Sequence record: OK428535.1
Length of the DNA: 64,000 nt
Direction: 5' to 3' (one strand)
Source of the DNA: Escherichia phage vB_EcoM_Lh1B
Within the stretch, counting starts at the first letter, position 1. The number at the start of each line of letters is the position of its first letter. Below are positions 2,629-58,290 of the stretch, in pieces. Under the pieces are notes generated by a model. The model saw only the letters and a program-made list of their open reading frames with translations, was not told the DNA's origin and searched no databases. Made by a program: the position numbers and the translations under genes.

Positions 2629-3948
2629 ATGATCAACTATAACAAACCTGTCATGCAGCTGGTTTGGGATCAGATTAATCGTGATAACCCGCAGCTCAAG
2701 AAACCACTCAACGCAACCAACGTGGCGTTATTACAAGGTCCTTTAACCAATGCCTTGCGCGATGGCCGCAACAGCCGTATAGTGGTAAACGGATTACAGG
2801 GTGGCGGTTACAGCGGTAAGATGGACATCTACTACGACCGCTTAAACCTTTCGCAGTATTTTAAAGGCGTCAGCGTACCGGTTAAAGTACCTTATCGGGC
2901 GACGTCCTACCGCGACATCATCGACCGGATTTCCGCAGCTTGTGGGCTGGTGCTTACTGCTGACGATTTAACGTATCCTGACAGCCAGTTTGCAATGATC
3001 ACTGTGGCAACGGGCGATCGGACGGTGGCGATTAAATCGGATAACCCCGCATTCACGGGTCACATTCCTATTAGCTTTATTCGTGAAGAGCCCAGCTTTG
3101 CCGACTTGTACCACACCACCGAAACCGGAGCTTGGGAACCCATGGATGTTTACAGCACGGTCTATCGACTCGACTGGAGCATGTACACCCAACAGATAAT
3201 CAATATCCCGATGGGTACCCCGCTGCGACTAAACAGTAACTCGTACATGACCCAGTTCATCGCGGCGCTGTCGGCATGGTCGGGCATCCCGTTCACTATC
3301 GGTAATGCTGCTACTGATAACCCGTATGACCTCTATGGGTATGTCGCTACACGCAATAACAACCCAGGCTTAGACCCTGATATGCGTGGGGAGTACAATT
3401 ACTGCGTGAAGTTGACGCCACCTGAGGATATGGGTAATCTCCGCCGTCCGTTCTTCTTGCACTTTGGTCCGAAAAATAACGTGGCCNATTTGGCGCAGGA
3501 AAAGGANGNCGAACGTTATGCGCGTTACATGAGGTTCCGGGAAACCAGCCCAAATTCGATGAGCGTCACGTTGTATCAAAACGAGTACGTGTTGACTCGG
3601 GCAGAATCGCCTGAAACTGCGGATGATTTAACGGGTTCCCCGTATGGCACTCGATACTGTACCGGGAGTATTCGACGGCTGATGCAACACGCGTTTCCGA
3701 CCGAAGAGATGTTCCAAGAAAGTATTGCTAACCGGCGTCGGGTACTGTACCACACTGCTTACACCACCACGACATCAGCTATTACTTACCAGGGACTATA
3801 CCGTAACGGATACCAATCCAAACAAATGACGAGCCTCTACTCGAATTACTGTAACTATTTCATCTATTACGACCCAAGCAAAGGCGGCTATATGGTCTAC
3901 AGTCCATATAGCAAAACCGCCCCGGTCCCTTGGTATCCACCGCTATAG
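2629..3948 (+). CDS. putative tail fibre / virion protein
   Basis: 439-aa ORF; C-terminal motif YYD..G.M...PY.K.AP.PW shared with the C-terminus of CDS 3963-6131. Confidence 0.6.
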   Translation: MINYNKPVMQLVWDQINRDNPQLKKPLNATNVALLQGPLTNALRDGRNSRIVVNGLQGGGYSGKMDIYYDRLNLSQYFKGVSVPVKVPYRATSYRDIIDRISAACGLVLTADDLTYPDSQFAMITVATGDRTVAIKSDNPAFTGHIPISFIREEPSFADLYHTTETGAWEPMDVYSTVYRLDWSMYTQQIINIPMGTPLRLNSNSYMTQFIAALSAWSGIPFTIGNAATDNPYDLYGYVATRNNNPGLDPDMRGEYNYCVKLTPPEDMGNLRRPFFLHFGPKNNVAXLAQEKXXERYARYMRFRETSPNSMSVTLYQNEYVLTRAESPETADDLTGSPYGTRYCTGSIRRLMQHAFPTEEMFQESIANRRRVLYHTAYTTTTSAITYQGLYRNGYQSKQMTSLYSNYCNYFIYYDPSKGGYMVYSPYSKTAPVPWYPPL

Positions 3949-3962
3949 ACTAAGGTGTCACC

Positions 3963-6131
3963 ATGTCCTACACTCCTGATTTAGTGGCGACCNTGATTCG
4001 GTCGCTCAACCGTAAAAACGCGGTCGCCAAAGCAGTAGACCCCGCTAACGTTCGCCTGGTGTCCGTGGAGCATCGTGACGAAAAAACCCTAGACGTCACA
4101 CTGACAGGGGGTCCGGGGTATTCAAGTTACGGTCAAATTACGGCCCAAGTGACGAAGCAAAATATTGCTGATTATTTCGCTAAGGTTAAGTTGGATGCCA
4201 TTCCCACCTGTGCATCCATCCACGAGCTGTTGCCGCATTTAGACACTCTACTAGGGATTACCTTTTTAACCGACGACTTTGAAGACCTGCCTATCACTTG
4301 GACAAACAATGCTGCGCGCATCACGTTCCAGGCGAAACAGACAAGTCTTATCTGGTACGGCAGCCAAACGCTAGATGTGATAAACGGTGACGTGGATATC
4401 AACACTGTCTACACTGTTACCAATATCATTCTCACGCTAAAGGCTGCGAATAAACAGCAGTGGATTAACTTCTACTCTAATGCAGCCAAACGGATCGTGG
4501 ATCTTGATAAAGTCGATGTCAGCGCCCCGATGTCCCCGGAGGATATAGGCCAAACCTCTGCGTATAACAGCGTCGTGGCTTTGACCGCTAGACCGGGGAG
4601 CGGGATGTTTGGAACGAAGTATGTGTTCTTCTCACGTAACAAACTCGAGACATATGCAGGCAAAACCACATACGTCCCGGATGATTTCACCGGTAGCCTG
4701 CACGATGCTCTGGCCATCGAGACACTCGGCATTCGGAGCGTTTTTGATGTAAACGAAATTGCTCCTGTAGAGAACCTGGCAGGCGAGTGGCCGAGACAAG
4801 TGCAATTGGCACCCGTAGAGGGTTCGTACAAAGTCATGGGCAGCGCCACGTTGAATGTGGCACGCTATCAAGATAACGAGCAAACCCTTAACCTGAACTA
4901 CACAACTACGTCGCAAGTTTCGGACAGCTACTGGGCCACGACGTTGACCAACCATGCGGCGTGCGGGCGTTTGTTTNTTAACGTGACCGTAGANGNGGGG
5001 GNTTTNGTTTTTCGCNCCAACAACCTAAAACCGACGTTCGTTATCGACGAATTGCCGCAAATTGGCGAGGTGGTTTGGAACTTCGTTAACCGGGGAACCA
5101 TTCTTGGTCGNGGTGGTTCGGGTATGGTCTATTCTCTGCCTGCGAACACATCAGCAGACGGAGCTGACGCAATCCACATTACCGATACCTTCCGCGGCAA
5201 AGTCACCATCGAAAACTACGGCACCATCGCCGGAGGTGGGGGTGGGGGCGACTACTATGCGTTTACCACCNCCAAGNTCGGTGGAGCTGGTGGTGCGCCT
5301 CTCGGGCCAGGCGCGGCGGTACCCAGCGGCACCAATAACCGTAACGGCTTAGCTGGGTCCCGTGACAAAGGCGGTGCTACCCAGTTAGTCGTCGCACAAT
5401 TTACCGGCTACCAGAGTCGCNACTATGGCGGTCCTGGTGGCGATTGGGGCCAGCCGGGACGATATACAGCGTTCGAGCAATGGAACACCCCGGCTACCGG
5501 CTCGCCGGTCTATGTCTACGGTCGTGAAGACGGGATGTCATGGACTCGCCCTGGGATGGCAGGCGAAGCCGTCGGTGGGAATAAAAGTATCGTCAACNGG
5601 GTATCCNTCGNAACGGGGAAACCNAATTTCACCNACGAGTACCAANAGTTCCNCNNCNACCNCNCAGATTTAGATNCCAACCGATTGGCCAGTGCGGATG
5701 GGATAGATAAAGTCACCGACCCAACCAAACCTGTAGTTGTGGAGTTCTTAGGTACGATTATTTCAGGTACGCTNTTCAAAAAGCAAAACATACCCGGCGG
5801 TTTGGTGGGAACACCATACGGCGATGCTGTAGCCAACTTACCGAGCACCACATTGTTTGGTATCATGGCACACTGTGTATCGGAGTTTGATATTGTGCAC
5901 GACACTTGGCGTTACAACCGTGCGGTAATGTTCACCCTAAAACCCNCNCCTACCGGGGCGATTGGCCTCGCTGTGGAACGCAACCGGGTGAAATCGGCTA
6001 CCAGTAGTACACCGGTGGAGAGGTTCTATGTCGATCGCTTCGTGTATTACGATGCGTATCTCGGTAAAATGATGGAATGTAATCCGTATACCAAATCTGC
6101 CCCTAAACCGTGGGTGCGGCCAACGATATGA
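3963..6131 (+). CDS. putative tail fibre protein with Gly-rich repeats
   Basis: 722-aa ORF with poly-Gly/GGxGG stretches (GGGGGGDYY..GGAGGAPLGPGA) typical of fibre shafts; shares its C-terminal module with CDS 2629-3948; contains n-runs. Confidence 0.65.
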   Translation: MSYTPDLVATXIRSLNRKNAVAKAVDPANVRLVSVEHRDEKTLDVTLTGGPGYSSYGQITAQVTKQNIADYFAKVKLDAIPTCASIHELLPHLDTLLGITFLTDDFEDLPITWTNNAARITFQAKQTSLIWYGSQTLDVINGDVDINTVYTVTNIILTLKAANKQQWINFYSNAAKRIVDLDKVDVSAPMSPEDIGQTSAYNSVVALTARPGSGMFGTKYVFFSRNKLETYAGKTTYVPDDFTGSLHDALAIETLGIRSVFDVNEIAPVENLAGEWPRQVQLAPVEGSYKVMGSATLNVARYQDNEQTLNLNYTTTSQVSDSYWATTLTNHAACGRLFXNVTVXXGXXVFRXNNLKPTFVIDELPQIGEVVWNFVNRGTILGXGGSGMVYSLPANTSADGADAIHITDTFRGKVTIENYGTIAGGGGGGDYYAFTTXKXGGAGGAPLGPGAAVPSGTNNRNGLAGSRDKGGATQLVVAQFTGYQSRXYGGPGGDWGQPGRYTAFEQWNTPATGSPVYVYGREDGMSWTRPGMAGEAVGGNKSIVNXVSXXTGKXNFTXEYQXFXXXXXDLDXNRLASADGIDKVTDPTKPVVVEFLGTIISGTXFKKQNIPGGLVGTPYGDAVANLPSTTLFGIMAHCVSEFDIVHDTWRYNRAVMFTLKPXPTGAIGLAVERNRVKSATSSTPVERFYVDRFVYYDAYLGKMMECNPYTKSAPKPWVRPTI

Positions 6132-10333: not shown

Positions 10334-10875
10334 TCGTCCTCCTCAATCAGGCCAAGTTCTAACAACAAACCGAAGTCCAGCATCTGGAAGTCCTGATCGA
10401 GGTTACCGGCCCACAACAGAGAAATGTTGTGTTGCTCTTCTTCTTCCAACTGCGGGAGCAGGTGTTCTTCGAAGATTTGACGTTCTGTGTAATAAGCGTC
10501 AACCGGGTTATTGGAGCGTAAGTTACGAATACGCATCCGCGGGAATGACAAGCCCAATGCCACTAAACTTTCAGGACTGGCTTCATCAATAGAGTGACGT
10601 AGCAGTTCGATTTTGTGGCGTGGGTATGCAAGCAGTCGCTTCTCAAAGCCAGGGTTGCGCTTTTCGATTTCCGCGACAGACTCGTGTCCTTTCTCAACGC
10701 AGTAGACCGGGATCATCACATTCAGCCCGTATTTAATCAACAGGCTTTGGATTTCATCAGTGAAGTCTTCCCCTGCCACAATTGCGTGCACATTGTACAG
10801 CTTGCTTTTGCGCAGGAAGCGATCGACCAAGTGCAGTTTACGCTTCGTAAAATTGTGAATCAGTATTGACTTCAT
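10309..10875 (-). CDS. hypothetical protein (start uncertain)
   Basis: ORF 10309-10953; most plausible start is the ATG at 10875 (MKSILIHNF...) with GGAG RBS; overlaps the rSAM/SPASM gene. Confidence 0.5.
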   Translation of the reverse strand: MKSILIHNFTKRKLHLVDRFLRKSKLYNVHAIVAGEDFTDEIQSLLIKYGLNVMIPVYCVEKGHESVAEIEKRNPGFEKRLLAYPRHKIELLRHSIDEASPESLVALGLSFPRMRIRNLRSNNPVDAYYTERQIFEEHLLPQLEEEEQHNISLLWAGNLDQDFQMLDFGLLLELGLIEEDECLLLTKA

Positions 10876-12166
10876 TCTGGGCTCCGTTTTGTAATTTTTC
10901 TGCTTCGGCACGTTGGCGTACACAACGTGAACAATAGCACATGGATTTATCATGCAAATCTGATGCGCGAGTCGTACCAGTTTTCTGATACCAATATTCC
11001 GCCGCCATCAGCTTCGCAGTAGTCCAACCACACTGACGACGCTCGGCGTGATACGCTTTACGGTCTTCCAGTGTACCTTCACCGTTTTCGTACGATGCTG
11101 CTGCGCAGCTACCGCAGCTGTGTTTCATCGGACACCCTAAACAAGTTTCTGGGTAGTTGGTGTACTGCGTTTGAATCTCTTCTAACAGCTTACCGCCGTC
11201 CAGGCTCACAAACTCACGACCGACCAGTTCCGCTACAGCAGAGCGGGAAGTTACCGTGGACATGAAACGGTTACAACCGTAAATCTTGCGATCAAAGCCG
11301 AGACAGGTCATGTGCGTCAACGTACCGCAGTACGGTTTCAGGCGTTCTGGGTCGAGACGAACAGAGTCGTCATGTAAGAGTTTGTCACGCCAATCCGGGT
11401 CCCAAGTTGCCATAAAGTTCAGGCCATCCGGGATGATGTGCGTAATCGTGTTACGCGGGTTGGTGTGCAGACCCTTCTCAATCCAGTAGTCCATCACGTC
11501 CATCATCTGGTTCGCGATATCCAACGCCATATGGCGCGGCAGGATATCTTCGTACGTCACGTTACCAGAAATGGTACCACCGCCGGACATGTCAATTAAC
11601 GATTTCATGCTGGCGGCATAGTGCGGCAATGTATCGATCGTAAACGTCGCCTTTACGCCCAGTTCAGCGATGCCAACACTCTTCAGATAATTGTAACCGC
11701 GTACCGCAGCTTCGTACGACCCTTCACGCGTCGTGGTAAAGATACGATATTTGTCATGGACTTCAGGTAAACCATCGATGGAGACCCCAATAGACAGTTT
11801 GTCTTTCCAGCGCTCGATAATTTCTTTGTTCAGCGGACGGTCCAGAAGCGTACCGTTCGTGGAGATACTGAACATATACGGGCGATTGTGTTCTGCGCAT
11901 AACTTCTCTGCGGTTTCAAAGGCCGCCAAAAGAAGTTTAGGCTGCATGAACGGCTCACCACCGATGATATCGATGATGACTTCAACGTTCGGGATATCTT
12001 TATCACGCTCGAAACAAGCGTGGATAAAATCAATCACGTCTGCTACTTTGTTGTTACGCGGATATTTACGCTCGTAGCAGTATTCGCAGTCCAGGTTACA
12101 TGACAAGTTAGTCACAACCTGATACGTGCGTGGTGTGTACTGGATTTGCTGTTCGTTATTACTCAT
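10838..12166 (-). CDS. radical SAM enzyme with SPASM-type C-terminal Cys cluster (anSME/peptide-maturase-like)
   Basis: CNLDCEYC (Cx3Cx2C) at residues 23-30; C-terminal CLGCPMKHSCGSC plus further Cys residues typical of SPASM auxiliary Fe-S domains. Confidence 0.8.
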   Translation of the reverse strand: MSNNEQQIQYTPRTYQVVTNLSCNLDCEYCYERKYPRNNKVADVIDFIHACFERDKDIPNVEVIIDIIGGEPFMQPKLLLAAFETAEKLCAEHNRPYMFSISTNGTLLDRPLNKEIIERWKDKLSIGVSIDGLPEVHDKYRIFTTTREGSYEAAVRGYNYLKSVGIAELGVKATFTIDTLPHYAASMKSLIDMSGGGTISGNVTYEDILPRHMALDIANQMMDVMDYWIEKGLHTNPRNTITHIIPDGLNFMATWDPDWRDKLLHDDSVRLDPERLKPYCGTLTHMTCLGFDRKIYGCNRFMSTVTSRSAVAELVGREFVSLDGGKLLEEIQTQYTNYPETCLGCPMKHSCGSCAAASYENGEGTLEDRKAYHAERRQCGWTTAKLMAAEYWYQKTGTTRASDLHDKSMCYCSRCVRQRAEAEKLQNGAQNEVNTDSQFYEA

Positions 12167-13073
12167 TGTTCGCCGCCCGTTTACGCTTAGCAGAAATTAC
12201 ACGGTTGATGTAGTTATACGCATCAACGCCGATAGAACGCGCCAGGCGATTACAGCCGACTTCCAATATCTCTGGGGCGTTCTGAATTTGCTCCTGCGTA
12301 CCGTCGGCGTTAAGCCACAGCACTTCACTGCACGTGTTGCACTCGGTATCGAACATTTTACTGATCGCAAGCCCACATTCAGAATCGTTCTGCATGTTAA
12401 GGCGTTCGATATTGTCGAGTATTTTCCAATACCCGTACATGAAGTTCATGACGTGGTCTGGCGATAACGGTTTCGGCATCATCGCATCAAACAACAACGA
12501 CACACCACCTGGACGGTAATGATAGATTGCTCGGTGCAGCTCGATGAAATCTTCGTACCAGCGTTTATCGCCTAACTGGTCACGCGTCATCACACCCCAG
12601 GTGTAATAATTGTCCAGCTCGTACAGCACTTCCAGCGCTTCGTGATTACCACCGTTTACAAAGTTCATAAACGGACGTTCCGACTTCTTGTAGCCGTCAA
12701 TGGACACAAAGATAAGGTCGAACTGTTTCAGCAACGGCAGATGTGATTTACGCATCTTTAAACCGTTGGTGTACATGTGATGACGGAGGTTCGGATGAGA
12801 CTCCTTCAACTCGTTCACGAAGTCTTCAATCTTACGCTGCGCTAACAGCGGCTCACCGCCCGTCCAATGAATCTCACCGATATCCGGATTCTTCTCTAAA
12901 ATCGAGAGAATCTCTTCACGTTGAAACTCACGAGAAGTATCTTCTCTATCCATGTAATAAGCCCCTCCACAGAAGCTACAGTCTAAGTTACACTTAGAAG
13001 TTGCGACAACCGACAGAATTGACGGTTTGTCGTACAGTTCAGACGAGATCCTGGATTCTACTTGATCTGTCAT
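12159..13073 (-). CDS. radical SAM enzyme (second, shorter)
   Basis: CNLDCSFC Cx3Cx2C motif near the N-terminus; C-terminal ECNTCSE...GCN partial Cys cluster; stop overlaps the start of the downstream rSAM gene by 8 nt. Confidence 0.75.
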   Translation of the reverse strand: MTDQVESRISSELYDKPSILSVVATSKCNLDCSFCGGAYYMDREDTSREFQREEILSILEKNPDIGEIHWTGGEPLLAQRKIEDFVNELKESHPNLRHHMYTNGLKMRKSHLPLLKQFDLIFVSIDGYKKSERPFMNFVNGGNHEALEVLYELDNYYTWGVMTRDQLGDKRWYEDFIELHRAIYHYRPGGVSLLFDAMMPKPLSPDHVMNFMYGYWKILDNIERLNMQNDSECGLAISKMFDTECNTCSEVLWLNADGTQEQIQNAPEILEVGCNRLARSIGVDAYNYINRVISAKRKRAANNE

Positions 13074-42572: not shown

Positions 42573-43018
42573 TGAAATGGGTTGGGTGTATCGTCTGTAG
42601 CCTGATACTAGGAGCGGGCGCATACGCCCTAGGCGCAATCCTTGCATTGACGCAAGGTTGGTTTTAACAGGAGGGTAATTACGAAGTGGGAGAAGTATCA
42701 TGTAACAGTGAAACAGTCTCTGATCCCGTGGTCGTGGGTTCAGGGGCGGCCGAGCCAACCCGGCGTATCGTTCTTTCGAGCGCGGGGATGGCTATAGGGT
42801 CTTCAAAGAACCTTCTAGCAGACATCGCGGAAGTCTGCGGGCCGGATGATTTTGCAGTTTCACGTACAGTCGGGGAAGACTGGCGTGGTAATCAGAAGCG
42901 CCATGAGCGAATGTGGCGACGGAAGGTTACCTCAGCATCGCGACGTTTTCAACGTCGTTGCTGATTATAGACACGGTTCCGATAGAGAACTGGTCTTCAC
43001 CTCTGGCGGTATACACCG

Positions 43019-43042
43019 CTTAAGTTTACCGGTAAACTTAAG
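43019..43042. promoter_or_regulatory. perfect 24-bp palindrome (candidate operator / protein-binding site)
   Basis: CTTAAGTTTACCGGTAAACTTAAG equals its own reverse complement; adjacent smaller inverted repeat GCGGT-ata-ACCGC at 43005-43018. Confidence 0.35.
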
Positions 43043-43110
43043 AAAACACAAACCCAATTCTTCGTTACTCNCTTTCATCGCAGGTGAAAGCTCACTTAGG
43101 AATTCAGCTC

Positions 43111-43599
43111 ATGGCCGAAATTGTCATTCTTTCCTCATCCTCAGATTTAACGGAAGCACAAAATAAACAGCTGTTGGGGCTGCATTATAAATTTCTGAAC
43201 CACCAACGTACCATACTCCATATCGAAAAAGGTGAGATTCCGAACCTCACTCTGGAGAAACTGTTGGCGGGGAACCGTGCTTGTGTTGCTCTGGAAGGGG
43301 GTACCCCTGTTGGTTACTGTTTGTATCGCGTAATCGCTGGGGTTCTGAAGATTCGTACGATGTTCGTGTCTGAAATGGCACGCCGTCGTAAAACGATGAC
43401 GCAGATTTTTGATGCGCTTGATGTGAATGNGCAGTTCACCAGTGCGCATGGGGGAATATACGCTTGCCAGGAAGCTGGTATTGCGTTCTTTACCNCTCGC
43501 GGTTTTGACAAGACCGTCTCTACAGACGGACAATGGCTTGAATTTAAGAAGCAGGTTCTTGCGGAAGCAGATGAACCTTTAAGGACTGCGGTAGCATAG
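43111..43599 (+). CDS. hypothetical protein
   Basis: ATG at 43111 with AGGAA RBS; 162 aa. Confidence 0.5.
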   Translation: MAEIVILSSSSDLTEAQNKQLLGLHYKFLNHQRTILHIEKGEIPNLTLEKLLAGNRACVALEGGTPVGYCLYRVIAGVLKIRTMFVSEMARRRKTMTQIFDALDVNXQFTSAHGGIYACQEAGIAFFTXRGFDKTVSTDGQWLEFKKQVLAEADEPLRTAVA

Positions 43600-43634
43600 T
43601 CCTGTTTTAGCACTCCTTACGATTATGCCTCACT

Positions 43635-43880
43635 ATGAGTGGGGTATTTTTTACGCGAGGAGTGCTATTTATGTTTCACCGTCCCGGGTTTTCAGCTTTA
43701 AACACCGATGTCTGTTGGGCTGAGTACGAGCGGGTGAAGGAGTTCTTACCCGTAAATCCTAAACACATCAACGTGGGTACTATCGGGCGTGTTGCGTTCG
43801 ATGACACTCCGCTGAGTACGTGTATTAAAGCTGCGCTTGGTACGCTGCCGGCGTCTATAGTGTTTGAGGAATTAAAATGA
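43635..43880 (+). CDS. hypothetical small protein
   Basis: 81-aa ORF ending with an ATGA overlap into the next gene. Confidence 0.4.
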   Translation: MSGVFFTRGVLFMFHRPGFSALNTDVCWAEYERVKEFLPVNPKHINVGTIGRVAFDDTPLSTCIKAALGTLPASIVFEELK

Positions 43881-44395
43881 CGGACATTCGTGTTGACATA
43901 TATGGGGAAATTCATACCACGGCCGATCGTAATCGTGTTGAATGGGCTATCATCGATAACCATCGGAAAAAACCATACGATTTTTTACTGTGTGAAGAAC
44001 TGGGGCCGTATGAACATCACACTGCAAAAGCGCAAGATAAGGCATTAAAGGAGAAGATGTACTCTATTGGACCCATGGGGCTGGAGTTGGCTAAGAAACT
44101 CGGCATCCCTGCTATTGGGATCGATGACTGGAGCGACGCAACCTACGCTAAAGATATCAAGGATAAAAAGGGAATGGCTGTAAACTTTAGCCGTTCTTTT
44201 TATATTNGTGAAACTAAAATGGTTGCAAAAATTAAAAAGTATATGGCAAAAGGGCGTTGTGCTGTTATGCTTGGCGACTCACACTTGCGCACCACGAAAA
44301 CTAAAGAGCTTGGTGATGCGTCCCTTATCTGGGAAACGTTTAAGGATAATCCTGAAGTGAAGTTTCACAGGAGCCCTAAACGCGAGATTGATTAA
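43877..44395 (+). CDS. hypothetical protein
   Basis: 172-aa ORF. Confidence 0.55.
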   Translation: MTDIRVDIYGEIHTTADRNRVEWAIIDNHRKKPYDFLLCEELGPYEHHTAKAQDKALKEKMYSIGPMGLELAKKLGIPAIGIDDWSDATYAKDIKDKKGMAVNFSRSFYIXETKMVAKIKKYMAKGRCAVMLGDSHLRTTKTKELGDASLIWETFKDNPEVKFHRSPKREID

Positions 44396-44413
44396 ATCTA
44401 AAGGAGCATTAAA

Positions 44414-44836
44414 ATGGTTACCGCTATTCGCGAAACAAAATCACTATACGATCATTTATCAGAAGAAGAAACAGCCTTATTCTACGACCTGTTACCTGAA
44501 ACCAAAGCAAATGTTCAGTGGTGGTTACGTTTAGCGCTACGTGATAAAGTTGGGGAAACGCCGGTTAGTATTCTCGCACACACGTTGGACATGACACCCA
44601 TGATTGAAATCGCGATTACCCGCCCTAAATTCTGGCGACCTGGTATGGTGCGTGAGGCGTATCTACTCCAACGCTTAGGTGTTGACCCGGAGAAGTGTTG
44701 GCGTAAGATGGACGACCATCGCTACCGTGAAGAAATTACGAATAGCCTCAACACTATGTTGGCAATGAAACGACTCGGTATCGAANACGAAGGTTTCGAG
44801 TCTGCGGTGCAAGCGTGGGTGAGAAGGAATAGCTAA
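44414..44836 (+). CDS. hypothetical protein
   Basis: 140-aa ORF with AAGGAG RBS. Confidence 0.55.
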   Translation: MVTAIRETKSLYDHLSEEETALFYDLLPETKANVQWWLRLALRDKVGETPVSILAHTLDMTPMIEIAITRPKFWRPGMVREAYLLQRLGVDPEKCWRKMDDHRYREEITNSLNTMLAMKRLGIEXEGFESAVQAWVRRNS

Positions 44837-45085
44837 ATGCAAAAAACAATCATCGGAATAATGGTTAGTTCTTTCTGTGGTTTCCCTACCCCGCAGACAG
44901 AACCCCAATATTTGGGCGCAGGCAAACCTGATCCGGAAGTCCGTAAGTTGCGCGAAGAAGCAAAAGCCAGAGTTCTTACTGAGCTGGAATCGTTGCTTCA
45001 GTCTCCGGTTATTTCACAATGGGGTATGGCAATAGATGTCACTCGAACTGATCGACGAGGCTATTATCTCCCACGACCTGTTTAA
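44837..45085 (+). CDS. hypothetical small protein (overlaps next gene by 50 nt)
   Basis: 82-aa ORF with AGGAA RBS. Confidence 0.35.
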   Translation: MQKTIIGIMVSSFCGFPTPQTEPQYLGAGKPDPEVRKLREEAKARVLTELESLLQSPVISQWGMAIDVTRTDRRGYYLPRPV

Positions 45086-45536
45086 CGCGCCTGAGCGCTT
45101 CAAGGTCGTTACAGTTAACTGTGTTGGTGCAATGGGAAGGGGCATTGCCTTGGCGTGCCGAGAACGCTTCCCATCGCTTTATAATGACTATCGCCAGAAA
45201 TGTCGTAAAGAGCAAATCGTTATCGGTGAGGTCTATTGTTATCCTGAGGAAGGGGTAATACTCCTTCCTACTAAAACCCATTTTCGCTATAAATCGCAGA
45301 TTTACTATGTCACGTCCGGCATTGATGCGCTGGCGCGACTAGGGGAAGACTTAGAAGGAGGGATTGCGATACCNCCCCTAGGGATGGCTAACGGTTGGTT
45401 ACGTTACCATGAGCGATTGGAAATCTTTATACACTTACAGAAACGACTACAGCACACGGAGCAGACTTATCGATTCTATTTACCAGACACCCTGCTGAGG
45501 GAAGCAGAGAAAATCATCCCAAAAAGTTTCAAATAG
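45036..45536 (+). CDS. macrodomain protein, Macro_2/TARG1 (OARD1)-like; probable ADP-ribosyl hydrolase
   Basis: HDLFNAPE...VNCVGAMGRGIALACRERFP...IGEVYCY...LLPTK...PLGMANGW follows the TARG1 pattern GDLF.CP...C.....MGAGIA..F...F...GEV..L...K...IGCGLD (recalled from memory). Confidence 0.55.
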   Translation: MSLELIDEAIISHDLFNAPERFKVVTVNCVGAMGRGIALACRERFPSLYNDYRQKCRKEQIVIGEVYCYPEEGVILLPTKTHFRYKSQIYYVTSGIDALARLGEDLEGGIAIXPLGMANGWLRYHERLEIFIHLQKRLQHTEQTYRFYLPDTLLREAEKIIPKSFK

Positions 45537-45551
45537 ATATTATTATCAGGG
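45530..45551 (+). promoter_or_regulatory. recurring intergenic motif (candidate promoter element)
   Basis: CAAATAGATATTATTATCAGGG, overlapping the stop of the macrodomain gene. Confidence 0.25.
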
Positions 45552-45635
45552 CACATTACAAAGGAGCACAATGCCGTCCGCGCCGTCTTCCCGGATTGGG
45601 AACGGAAAAGTATAAATCCGTTTGGAGATACATCC

Positions 45636-46358
45636 ATGTTTCNCACCATTTTATTTCTTCTGGTAGCAGTGACCACATTCAACAGCAACGCTTCTTACCA
45701 GACCACCAGTAACAAACACCAAAAAGAATTCGTCCTTATCCAGGACCAGTTCAATGAGATTAAACCTCTCATCGTCACCGCATCTCGAAAACAAGGCGTA
45801 CATGCCGGGATGCTCGCGACCACCATTTATCGTGAATCCCGTTTTAATAAAAACGTGGGTAAGAATAAATCGAGCAGTGCTAGTAGTGTTGTCCAAATGA
45901 CGACAGGCACTAAACGCTCCATGATACGTCTGTATGGGAAACAACTTAACATCCCAAAGAATGCGGACCTTAATAAACCGAAGTATGCTGTACAGCTTGC
46001 TGCCGTTTACATGAAACACATCGAGGATCATCTGACAAAACAACTCAAACGCAAGCCGAGCACAGCCGAAATCGCTTTAGGCTATCGCTTCGGTGAGGGT
46101 GCCGCTGTTGCGATGATTAAAAAGAAATCACCGGTCGGGAAACGCTGGATGGCNNGCNACNGAAAAGACGCAGCATTCTACGGTGCGAAAATGACACCAC
46201 CGAAAGNTGAAANACNNCNGNTTNNNTTTGNGNAGGNAGNCCANGNCCAACGNGTCGCCGAACTTCAGAAAATCTGGGATACGCTGTACACCAAAATATC
46301 ACCTGCGGCCGGTACATTACTGGCAAATAACACTATCATGAAAGGAGCATTGCTATGA
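45636..46358 (+). CDS. SLT-domain lytic transglycosylase-like protein with N-terminal signal peptide
   Basis: Hydrophobic N-terminus; YRESRFNKNVG...SSASSVVQMTTGT...YAVQLAAVYMKH...ALGYRFGEG matches the ES / Q-M / AYN-G motif order of SLT domains; n-rich C-terminal part. Confidence 0.5.
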   Translation: MFXTILFLLVAVTTFNSNASYQTTSNKHQKEFVLIQDQFNEIKPLIVTASRKQGVHAGMLATTIYRESRFNKNVGKNKSSSASSVVQMTTGTKRSMIRLYGKQLNIPKNADLNKPKYAVQLAAVYMKHIEDHLTKQLKRKPSTAEIALGYRFGEGAAVAMIKKKSPVGKRWMXXXXKDAAFYGAKMTPPKXEXXXXXFXXXXXXQXVAELQKIWDTLYTKISPAAGTLLANNTIMKGALL

Positions 46359-46948
46359 CACTCGTAACACGCCCCTGGTATCCAGGTCTTAAAACAGCCG
46401 NACAAATCACCGCCAAAGACGTTTACGAACTGATTCGCGCGGGTGCGGAACACGTTCAAACCAATCCGAACTACGTTGAGCGTCCTATCGGTGAAGTCGA
46501 TGGGGAAGCTGTCGAAGCACCTGTCTACGTTGAGTACGGCGAATGGTTCGCAGAGAACCACGGTTTCTACGACGCGTTAAACGCGGCGTTTGGTGATGAC
46601 GAAGACGAAGGTATCGAATTCGACTGGAACGTTAATCTGGCGCTGATGTGGATTTGTGGTTTACGTCCAGCAATTAACGAAACCGAAGCAGGCTTCGTGC
46701 TGACGTGGCGACAGTCGGCGGGTTACGATAAAGAACTCGACTTCAAACAGGCGTATATGGATGTGTCGATTGCACTGCAGAAACTGTTCTTCGGCGATCG
46801 TGCTTTCTGCCAGCTCAGCTGGTTGACCATCCTGGAAAAACTGGCAACGTGCCACAAACTGTGGCGAGCAGAAGATGCCCCAGAACATCTTTTCGTGCTC
46901 GAATATGCAGTGGTACCGAACCAGCCGTTCTTTGAGGCCGAAGCGTAA
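46355..46948 (+). CDS. hypothetical protein
   Basis: 197-aa ORF, ATGA overlap with the upstream gene. Confidence 0.55.
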   Translation: MTLVTRPWYPGLKTAXQITAKDVYELIRAGAEHVQTNPNYVERPIGEVDGEAVEAPVYVEYGEWFAENHGFYDALNAAFGDDEDEGIEFDWNVNLALMWICGLRPAINETEAGFVLTWRQSAGYDKELDFKQAYMDVSIALQKLFFGDRAFCQLSWLTILEKLATCHKLWRAEDAPEHLFVLEYAVVPNQPFFEAEA

Positions 46949-46953
46949 TTAAC

Positions 46954-46986
46954 GGTCAGACCTTCGGGTCTGACCNCCTTTTATTT
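46954..46986 (+). terminator. rho-independent terminator
   Basis: GGTCAGACC-ttcg-GGTCTGACC hairpin followed by CTTTTATTT. Confidence 0.6.
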
Positions 46987-46999
46987 AATTCTTGGGTGT

Positions 47000-47266
47000 G
47001 TGTTCGTGAAACGTTTAATAAATATTCTCTACTGGATGGAGAAACGCTATAGCCACAACATTCCGATGATGTATAGTTTGTTATTCTCTACGGTAATGTT
47101 GGTGATCGGTGCGATTGTCGCGCATCTGATGGAACTCACGTCTCCATGGGCGCAACTCTTTCTTACCATCTGGATGTTGTTCTCAGGCTACCACATACGT
47201 GGTTTCATAACCCGATTCTTTCGCTGGCGTAGTACCTGGCACGTCTTTAATTCCGACCGTAACTAG
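47000..47266 (+). CDS. small membrane protein (GTG start)
   Basis: 88 aa with two hydrophobic segments; start codon GTG. Confidence 0.45.
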   Translation: MFVKRLINILYWMEKRYSHNIPMMYSLLFSTVMLVIGAIVAHLMELTSPWAQLFLTIWMLFSGYHIRGFITRFFRWRSTWHVFNSDRN

Positions 47267-47326
47267 TTTTTTACAGCAGTAACTAATCATCTGAAAATAC
47301 CATTGACTTTTATAAGGACTATTAAC

Positions 47327-48460
47327 ATGCAATTTCCAATTTCCGTAATCGAAGATATGGCTCGTGTAGTACGTGACCGTGCGTATGTGCTTAGCTACGA
47401 AGGTATTCGTGCATATTCAGAAGCTCTGATTGCACAACACGTCACTGGCACCGGTGTTATCAACCCGGATCTTTACAATGCGCTGGTCGATAACAATGTG
47501 GAGGCTTATCTGCCGCTGCCGCACCTGCGTAATAAGTTGTGCCTTTCTTCTCAAACTCTTCAGTTTGATAACCTGCCGCCACTGAAATATTCGCCAGATG
47601 ACCGTTGGGGAAGTATGCTGGGCGTAGCTTTCCAAAATTGCCACGCGCCTTATAACTGGTCTATTCTCGTTGAAGGTGTTGATGGTGTCTGGTATGCCAT
47701 TGCACATTCTGACGGATTCTTCTTCGAACCAGGTGAGTTGATTAAACCAGTAAGTGCCCCACAAGGTCGTGCTAAGGTTGGGCATTGTTACATTGAATTG
47801 ACTCATGTCCAGTGGACTATCGAAGACTGGCGTGCTGCCTCCGTTATCTTCGGTGACGGTAAACCACACTCAGTTACTTTCGAGCGTTGTGAAGCAGAGC
47901 ATGTTGAAGAGACTGACAATGACGAAGTGGGAGATCGTTACGCGCCGCTGGAAGAGTGTCGTAACATCGNNAACANCNACTGGGTGAAAGTCTTTACGGC
48001 CAACCCCGGTTTCCGTGGCCANACNATCAACCCCGGNGAAGNAACCTGGGAAGGTTTCGTACAACTCGCAGATAAACTCGGTTATGACGTGTGGGATTAT
48101 ACCTACAAACGTCCATACCCGAATGCGTCGGAAGATGAAGACCACGATGAAATCATTCTGGAAAACCTGGCTGATATCGAAAACGTGTTCATCGATGATG
48201 AAATCTTCATCACCCTCGGCATTGAGCGTCCGAAATCAACCGCATATCCGGTATCGGTTGCCAGCGTTATTCAGGAACTGGGCAAGATGCAGGAGCAGAC
48301 CGTCGAAGTGAAAATCGACGAAGAGCAAATGCATATCGTTGCACAGGTACAGAAAACTCTGAACCTGGATAAACTGTACGCGGAAATCCGCAAGCAGCCG
48401 AAAAAGAAACGTACTGCTGCCACAATCAAAGCAATGATGCGTGAAATTATCGGCAAGTAA
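47327..48460 (+). CDS. hypothetical protein
   Basis: ATG at 47327 with AAGGA RBS. Confidence 0.55.
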   Translation: MQFPISVIEDMARVVRDRAYVLSYEGIRAYSEALIAQHVTGTGVINPDLYNALVDNNVEAYLPLPHLRNKLCLSSQTLQFDNLPPLKYSPDDRWGSMLGVAFQNCHAPYNWSILVEGVDGVWYAIAHSDGFFFEPGELIKPVSAPQGRAKVGHCYIELTHVQWTIEDWRAASVIFGDGKPHSVTFERCEAEHVEETDNDEVGDRYAPLEECRNIXNXXWVKVFTANPGFRGXXINPXEXTWEGFVQLADKLGYDVWDYTYKRPYPNASEDEDHDEIILENLADIENVFIDDEIFITLGIERPKSTAYPVSVASVIQELGKMQEQTVEVKIDEEQMHIVAQVQKTLNLDKLYAEIRKQPKKKRTAATIKAMMREIIGK

Positions 48461-57366: not shown

Positions 57367-58290
57367 ATGGACAGCTTTCTTTTTGATTTGGCAGAATCGG
57401 TAAATGTAGATGTAATCGGTATGCGCGAATCCCCGAGTAATTTCTTAAACGGTCTTACTAAAATCGACGAACGTGTGAAATCCAGAAGTGGAGATCCCGC
57501 CATCATCGAGCAATACGCAATAGCCCATTGTGGCGAGATAGGCCAGCACTTTATACCGATTGAGGCGTTCCTAAAGAACTGCTTCGCCGAAGAATGCACC
57601 GCAGACTTCCTGTCTCTTGCCTACGGCTGGCGATACGGGGGTATCCAAATGGAATTTGATCTTAATATTTTTGAACAAGTTCTACTTGGCGACGTTCTCA
57701 CTGAGATACCACGCAGCTGGATAGACAAGATTCCCGGTTGGGCCGTCTCCTTTTCAGTGTGCTATCGCGCTAAAGATATCGGTATCCAAGAAAAGACTTA
57801 CGTTTTCGGTCGGCGAATGTTTAAAGGGAAAGATTGTTTAACAATGATGATTTTTGGAAAACGTATCGAGGGGGAAACCTTTGAAATCGTGGACGTGGGT
57901 GACGGCTTTGTATCCTTGCGTGTGGCGGAAACTGGTACGCCGGCCAATGAGAAAACGTTACGCATTGTCGGCGCTACCATGTTTACATTCTCACTGATCC
58001 CGCACAACCCTACACCCGTCAAACTGAGACAATTAACTGGAAAGAAACGTATCGCCAATTACCACATTGAACCAAAATCTAAACCGACTGTCCTCTCCAC
58101 CGTAAAAGCACAAAGCGAGTATCTTGAAGAATTTGATACTGATACGGAGAAAAGAACACAAGGTAGCAGATGTGCGCATATGCGTCGTGCACACTGGTGT
58201 ACTTACTGGCTCGGTCCACGTGACGGGAATCGGACAAAGATTTTGAAATGGATACCGCCGACATTTGTCAACGGTTCTAAATGCAAATAA
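57367..58290 (+). CDS. hypothetical protein
   Basis: 307-aa ORF with AAGGAG RBS. Confidence 0.55.
   Translation: MDSFLFDLAESVNVDVIGMRESPSNFLNGLTKIDERVKSRSGDPAIIEQYAIAHCGEIGQHFIPIEAFLKNCFAEECTADFLSLAYGWRYGGIQMEFDLNIFEQVLLGDVLTEIPRSWIDKIPGWAVSFSVCYRAKDIGIQEKTYVFGRRMFKGKDCLTMMIFGKRIEGETFEIVDVGDGFVSLRVAETGTPANEKTLRIVGATMFTFSLIPHNPTPVKLRQLTGKKRIANYHIEPKSKPTVLSTVKAQSEYLEEFDTDTEKRTQGSRCAHMRRAHWCTYWLGPRDGNRTKILKWIPPTFVNGSKCK

Follow-up and report, generated by a model that had tools for sequence, protein, structure and literature searches.

A short gene in the genome of Escherichia phage vB_EcoM_Lh1B, whose product resembles a macrodomain, raises the question of whether a phage copy of this fold reverses ADP-ribosylation imposed by the host and, if so, which mark it removes. 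The window analysed here is a stretch of 64,000 nucleotides of sequence record OK428535.1. Within it, the open reading frame lies on the plus strand at 45036..45536, with its ATG at 45036 and its stop codon at 45534-45536, and encodes 166 amino acids; position and length are exactly those given by the first-pass annotation, which had been made from the sequence alone. This is a genuine gene, a chance frame being excluded by the homologues present in the databases: 51 proteins matched its product at E<=1e-5, and tblastn found matches to the frame in 241 phage records. At least 22 Seoulvirus genomes contain the frame in intact form, with protein identities of 97-100%, and related phages carry the gene as a single copy per genome. 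The start codon is backed by the orthologue of Erwinia phage Asesino, which aligns over residues 1 to 166, and by the first beta-strand (residues 3-7), placed at a pLDDT of about 91 in the AlphaFold2 model described below. The GC content of the frame is 47%, and that of the window 48%. Its sole ambiguous base, 45374, is the third of codon 113 (ccN), and residue 113 is therefore a proline whichever base is present; P0001, a public protein 99% identical to the one encoded here, has Pro at this residue.

At the nucleotide level the window is 97-98% identical to Salmonella phage SPN3US, and its region 43800-47000 shares 96-98% identity with SPN3US and the related phages MET_P1_082_240, 1252, SEGD1, JN03 and EC001. 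All of these are members of Seoulvirus, a genus assigned by the NCBI taxonomy to the Chimalliviridae, the nucleus-forming jumbo phages. The macrodomain protein is 98% identical to its SPN3US orthologue, called a 'hypothetical protein' in GenBank (SPN3US_0196) and a 'macro domain-containing protein' in RefSeq (ACQ60_gp070 / YP_009153490.1), while orthologues in other records carry the labels 'protein-ADP-ribosylation protein', 'phosphatase' or 'putative Appr-1-p processing protein'. A literature search on SPN3US gp196 found nothing relevant. The features of the locus are collected in Table 1.

Table 1. Features of the macrodomain locus, with positions numbered along the window.
Feature	Position	Strand	Remarks
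adfM-like gene, stand-alone DarG-type macrodomain, 166 aa	45036..45536	+	orthologue of SPN3US_0196 / YP_009153490.1 and Asesino gp217
Codon Asn28	45117..45119	+	equivalent by alignment to Thermus DarG N22 and PhiKZ AdfM N23
Gly-rich loop 1 GAMGRG, residues 31-36	45126..45143	+	aligned with DarG GVMGKG
Codons Thr79-Lys80	45270..45275	+	Lys80 corresponds to Thermus DarG K80 and PhiKZ AdfM K78; TARG1 lysine aligned
Loop 2 PPLGMANGW, residues 113-121	45372..45398	+	aligned with DarG PPLG(A/V)GNGG and PhiKZ PPLGCANGG; contains N base 45374
GNAT acetyltransferase	43084..43599		flanking gene
SLT transglycosylase	45636..46358		flanking gene
Terminator-like hairpins	43625..43647 and 46954..46975	+	stems of 10 and 9 bp, followed by T-runs

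Two observations concern the records themselves. There are 315 N bases in the window, grouped into 279 runs of one to three bases and clustered for example at 1863-1968 and 46120-46250; they look less like assembly gaps than like polymorphic positions that were masked or left ambiguous, and put X residues into several of its translations. In addition, the database returned a number of 'shuffled' homologues (P0037, P0041, P0042, P0046 and others), which were rejected as biology and ascribed to a database artefact. In LR535917.1 (SPFM20) the DNA of the window is divided into consecutive blocks of 60 nt that each read forward but follow one another in the opposite order, and the same reversal was recognized in SPFM1, 6, 8, 12, 14 and 15, as judged from their proteins. 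Apparently, these FASTA records were reversed line by line without reverse-complementing, and their annotated 'proteins' therefore string together 20-aa segments of the macrodomain from last to first.

Sequence searches placed the protein next to the antitoxin DarG. The PADLOC DarG profile matched at E=1.1e-30, residues 12-152 covering profile positions 6-147 of 329, and the NCBIfam model antitoxin_DarG (NF048014) at E=6e-29 over its positions 7-150 of 338; the score of the latter, 101 bits, falls under the equivalog cut-off of 250 set for full-length DarG because the match covers just the macrodomain half of the model. Against the PDB, phmmer returned as the best match the DarG macrodomain of M. 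tuberculosis (5M3I, E=1.9e-19), followed by Thermus aquaticus DarG (5M31/5M3E, E=8e-18) and by the Thermosipho DarTG fusion (7OMU). The ranking was the same with a profile derived from an alignment of 44 homologues, down to 31% identity (alignment A1), which matched 5M3I at 9e-38, Thermus DarG at 5e-34 and 7OMU at 7e-26, and reached TARG1 at just 4e-4 and the yeast protein Poa1p at 4e-3. Searched against 1.84 billion proteins, this profile recovered 10,718 cluster representatives (E<=1e-3), of which 5,181 had E<=1e-10. Most of the top matches are proteins of 290-450 aa with the macrodomain at one end, which is the layout of DarG and of DarT-macro fusions; the matches also include proteins of 145-185 aa in which, as in the one studied here, the macrodomain stands alone.

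The first-pass annotation had described a protein of the TARG1 (OARD1) pattern, Macro_2-like and of the same fold family as DarG. The fold family was right, and within it DarG proved to be the closest member and TARG1 a distant one (4e-4 versus about 1e-37). The Macro_2 assignment fell, as Pfam PF14519 gave no match at E<=10. For Pfam Macro (PF01661), the other profile it had proposed, a match does exist (E=0.0015), confined to residues 25-68 and, at 19 bits, below the gathering score of 22 bits; some close homologues carry a precomputed PF01661 match. Macro_2/TARG1 was thus rejected as the family of this protein, on account of the missing Macro_2 match, the sub-threshold Macro score and the TARG1 aspartate, which has no counterpart here.

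An AlphaFold2 model was built on alignment A1 with P0001 as target. It consists of one alpha/beta/alpha domain spanning the entire protein, predicted with a mean pLDDT of 93 and a pTM of 0.89. A Foldseek search of the PDB with this model listed first the apo form of Thermus DarG (5M31, TM 0.77/0.84, E about 1e-12) and its complex with ADP-ribose (5M3E, TM 0.76/0.82, E about 1e-12), and then M. tuberculosis DarG (5M3I), Thermosipho DarTG, TARG1 (E=4.5e-7, TM 0.68/0.76) and the alphavirus nsP3 macrodomains; the top three (5M31, 5M3E and 5M3I) had TM scores of 0.75-0.84. There were 156 PDB matches at E<=1e-3, and the best 50 of these 156 are almost all macrodomains. The superposition suggested in the first-pass annotation therefore comes out, for the predicted structure, best on DarG macrodomains and next on TARG1. 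That annotation was to be abandoned if profile searches returned no macrodomain or if the predicted fold lacked the ADP-ribose cleft; macrodomain profiles did match, and the predicted fold is that of a macrodomain with its cleft.

To locate the candidate catalytic residues we used A1 together with a second alignment, A2, of the protein with Asesino gp217, PhiKZ gp104, two DarG macrodomains and TARG1. Thr79 and Lys80 are invariant in both alignments, and Asn28 is conserved in at least 90% of the A1 homologues. Loop 1 has four residues without variation in A1, G31, M33, G34 and G36, and the last three of them do not vary in A2 either, across AdfM, DarG and TARG1; we take this loop (residues 31-36) to be the one that binds the phosphates of ADP-ribose, as in macrodomains generally. 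In loop 2, all A1 homologues have G116 and G120, while P113, P114, L115, N119 and W121 are each conserved in at least 90%. In A2, Asn28 pairs with PhiKZ N23 and Thermus DarG N22, and Lys80 with PhiKZ K78 and Thermus DarG K80, the pairs being those identified as catalytic in Thermus DarG (N22/K80) and PhiKZ AdfM (N23/K78) (PMC13309987). The profile search also aligned Lys80 to the 'TKK' motif of TARG1. As read from these alignments, the putative catalytic residues Asn28 and Lys80 and both glycine-rich loops predicted to bind ADP-ribose are intact. The protein is one complete DarG2-type macrodomain.

Phage proteins of this kind have been described by Morgan et al. [quoted passage not shown] In that work PhiKZ AdfM stripped the thymine-linked ADP-ribose made by DarT2 from an ssDNA oligonucleotide, the N23A mutation lowered this activity, and the protein relieved DarT2 toxicity in E. 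coli. The titre of PhiKZ without AdfM went down 3-6 logs on DarTG2-expressing hosts and that of PhiPA3 without AdfM was also reduced, the defects of the deficient phages being in DNA replication and packaging (PMC13309987). Fused to GFP, the AdfM proteins of Asesino, PhiKZ and PhiPA3 entered the phage nucleus; the evidence for Asesino gp217 consists of this localisation, and hydrolysis of the oligonucleotide was reported for PhiKZ gp104 only (PMC13309987). An earlier PNAS paper had found the import of gp104 to be PicA-dependent and to proceed via a species-specific surface patch, an import signal that is not readable from sequence. In an antisense screen, PhiKZ104 was given as a non-core 'macro domain protein'.

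The protein of vB_EcoM_Lh1B can be connected to this family directly. In BLASTP it shared 35% identity with PhiKZ gp104 over 132 residues (E=3e-24), and in a tblastn search of the window with gp104 the macrodomain frame was the only match. Asesino gp217 (YP_009290835.1) is 70% identical over all 166 residues, and Asesino and the window have a common gene order, namely an SMC/SbcC-like gene, small ORFs, the GNAT acetyltransferase, small ORFs, the macrodomain and the SLT transglycosylase. Full-length identity of this degree together with synteny establishes orthology with AdfM, beyond mere resemblance, and on these grounds the gene is the Seoulvirus (SPN3US-group) orthologue of AdfM.

Besides the acetyltransferase and the transglycosylase, the flanking genes comprise four small PHROG families of unknown function and further unknowns, with no recognisable link to ADP-ribosylation. 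Scans of the neighbouring genes with Pfam, PHROGs and PADLOC revealed neither a DarT nor a DarG C-terminal domain. A full DarTG module carried by the phage was accordingly rejected, as the gene has no darT neighbour and a DarG C-terminal domain is absent from the protein and from the small upstream ORFs. Terminator-like sites numbered 11 within 43000-47500, compared with 4.5 +/- 1.8 in shuffled sequences, and the two hairpins of Table 1, both strong, bracket a block of seven genes (43635-46948) that includes adfM, which suggests a single transcription unit. A scan for sigma-70 promoters showed no enrichment over shuffles, and is uninformative because chimalliviruses use their own RNA polymerases.

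Several other genes of the window were also noted. The last 50 nt of an 82-codon ORF (44837..45085, plus strand; SPN3US_0195) are at the same time the beginning of the macrodomain gene; this ORF had no match in Pfam, PHROG or PADLOC. Its counterpart in Asesino (3811..4047 of that locus) is open but unannotated, with 43% identity (E=2e-13) and an overlap of ~47 nt; a large part of this identity falls within the tail that overlaps, and a motif upstream of it, CG(F/Y)P..Q.TEP(Q/E)Y, is common to both. This small ORF may be a genuine gene with translational coupling. A 172-aa ORF lying two genes upstream of adfM (43877..44395, plus strand; PHROG 14325, unknown function) is without counterpart in the syntenic Asesino locus, where two different small genes (gp215-216) are found, and it marks a variable spot near adfM. 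Elsewhere in the window, a 307-aa ORF (57367..58290, plus strand; PHROG 6160, unknown function, without Pfam or PADLOC match) lies within an insertion of ~1 kb that only two of the 33 related phage records, EC001 and JN03, contain and that is missing from SPN3US, whose flanking genes are 63 nt apart; this ORF is a variable accessory gene. On the minus strand, at 10838..13073, there are two adjacent radical SAM domain genes, recognized by their correspondence to SPN3US (ACQ60_gp103 and gp102), which are an unusual cargo for a phage structural region.

By analogy with its characterised homologues, the protein very probably acts as AdfM does, entering the phage nucleus, removing thymine-ADP-ribose from single-stranded phage DNA and thereby protecting the phage against DarTG2. 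The first-pass annotation had proposed a phage macrodomain that reverses ADP-ribosylation by host systems, for example of the DarT type, and this proposal gains support from the DarG matches, the candidate catalytic residues and the experiments on AdfM homologues. Extrapolating from PhiKZ gp104, PhiPA3 gp108 and Asesino gp217, the protein would be made in the cytoplasm after infection and imported through the PicA pathway into the phage nucleus bounded by chimallin. There it would hydrolyse the ADP-ribose that DarT2 attaches, within TNTC motifs, to thymine on the single-stranded DNA of the phage, and replication and genome packaging would then continue in hosts with DarTG2. Overall, it would behave as a phage-borne catalytic antitoxin minus the toxin-binding half. 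Escape by avoidance of the DarT2 motif was considered and rejected, since the window shows no depletion of TNTC (2073 observed vs 1999 +/- 38 expected), its density being about one site per 31 nt over both strands. This absence of avoidance is consistent with reliance on enzymatic reversal.

Other substrates have to be weighed against this role. It is unlikely that the protein reverses another mark, be it on protein or RNA ADP-ribosylated by other toxins or defences of the host, the guanine-ADP-ribose made by DarT1, or the products of an ADP-ribosyltransferase of the phage itself. The fold also occurs in hydrolases directed at protein and RNA, among them TARG1 and the nsP3 macrodomains of alphaviruses, loop 2 of its clade (GMANGW, with Trp121) is unlike those of both DarG and PhiKZ AdfM, and more than 40% of jumbo phages encode ADP-ribosyltransferases and 56% macrodomains (PMC9503650). 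However, the nearest relatives in sequence as well as in structure are all DarG2-type, and DarG2 macrodomains counter DNA ADP-ribosylation exclusively, the marks of DarT1 being removed by NADAR and not by macro domains (PMC13309987); moreover, no ADP-ribosyltransferase was found among the scanned neighbouring genes.

A narrower departure concerns the Seoulvirus/Erskinevirus branch of AdfM, marked by the conserved Trp121, an extra C-terminal helix and the conserved overlap of ~50 nt with the upstream 82-codon ORF. The differences in loop 2 and the additional helix mean that substrate preference could differ from that of PhiKZ AdfM, and we give a low probability to the idea that the substrate range or the mode of action of this branch has diverged. 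Among the forms that such a divergence might take, with no higher probability, are action on further ADP-ribosylated substrates, whether nucleic acid or protein, and participation of the small upstream protein as a partner for import or toxin binding. None of the branch differences, which include the absence of an insertion discussed below, touches the catalytic residues.

The names that the protein bears in databases point to a further activity, that of an ADP-ribose-1''-phosphate phosphatase or of an enzyme acting on small ADP-ribose derivatives (O-acetyl-ADP-ribose, NAD-derived immune signals), which we consider very unlikely. PHROG 335 is labelled 'phosphatase', and several GenBank records say 'Appr-1-p processing protein' or 'phosphatase', but these are inherited generic macrodomain labels and not the outcome of assays. 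Many macrodomains have side activities on small ADP-ribose derivatives. The match to yeast Poa1p is weak (E=0.004-0.05) and confined to residues 10-58, full-length similarity to the Poa1p-type family being absent, and the DarG match is better by over 30 orders of magnitude; the Asn and Lys specific to DarG are retained. In addition, the characterised homologue acts on ADP-ribosylated DNA and the phenotype of its loss is specific to DarTG2 (PMC13309987).

Finally, a catalytically dead macrodomain acting as an ADP-ribose 'reader', or a decaying accessory gene without function, would agree with the sub-threshold Pfam Macro score and with the occurrence of AdfM in just about half of chimalliviruses (PMC13309987), which implies that it is dispensable in some hosts, but is extremely unlikely given that both Gly-rich loops and the catalytic Asn-Lys pair are intact and conserved across the 44 homologues, even at 31% identity, that the frame is intact throughout the Seoulvirus genomes mentioned above and that the fold is predicted with confidence.

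The assignment as an AdfM orthologue that would act on DarT2-modified DNA has some practical consequences. The family, its mechanism and its anti-defence role are already published as AdfM, so that the finding is correct and not new; its outcome is a sharper annotation, with no biology beyond PMC13309987. "AdfM-like anti-DarT2 DNA ADP-ribosylglycohydrolase" would be a better name for the gene than "macro domain-containing protein", "phosphatase" or "hypothetical protein". AdfM makes clear that the phage nucleus is an incomplete shield, and that nucleus-forming jumbo phages need to repair ADP-ribosylated DNA on DarTG2 hosts. SPN3US-like phages are studied as biocontrol agents of Salmonella, and the presence of an adfM gene in them predicts resistance to DarTG2 and bears on host range; a literature search on DarTG and Salmonella yielded nothing informative on the prevalence of DarTG2.

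Compared with known systems, the protein is furthest from TARG1 / OARD1 (4J5Q/4J5S), with which it shares the macrodomain sub-fold and an aligned catalytic lysine at an identity of about 15-17%. The Lys84-Asp125 dyad of TARG1 is incomplete, Asp125 being replaced by Gly120 as in DarG and AdfM, and TARG1 has a serine where the phage protein has Asn28; by these two positions, the protein is DarG-like and not TARG1-like. AdfN, AdfA and AdfB share with it the logic of counter-defence against DarTG, but have unrelated folds: AdfN is a NADAR domain of T4-like phages that removes the guanine-linked ADP-ribose made by DarT1, whereas AdfA and AdfB are inhibitors of DarT (PMC13309987). The macrodomains of DarG2 antitoxins (5M31/5M3E, 5M3I) are much closer, with 30-36% identity, a TM score of about 0.8 and the PPLGxxNG loop in common. 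In contrast to DarG, which has about 330-400 aa, the phage protein ends at 166 aa without a C-terminal DarT-binding domain and its gene lacks an adjacent darT; being phage-encoded, it would serve counter-defence rather than as an antitoxin. The closest system is AdfM itself (PhiKZ gp104 and its relatives), likewise a stand-alone DarG2-like macrodomain of ~160 aa from a nucleus-forming jumbo phage, with the same predicted catalytic Asn and Lys. The protein described here comes from a genus other than those of the characterised members, Seoulvirus, whose hosts are Salmonella and E. coli. An acidic insertion of 15 residues found in PhiKZ gp104 is missing from it, it has an extra C-terminal helix (residues 151-160), and its loop 2 reads GMANGW, as in the Seoulvirus/Erskinevirus branch, instead of the GCANGG of PhiKZ gp104 or the G(A/V)GNGG of DarG, Trp121 being specific to this clade.
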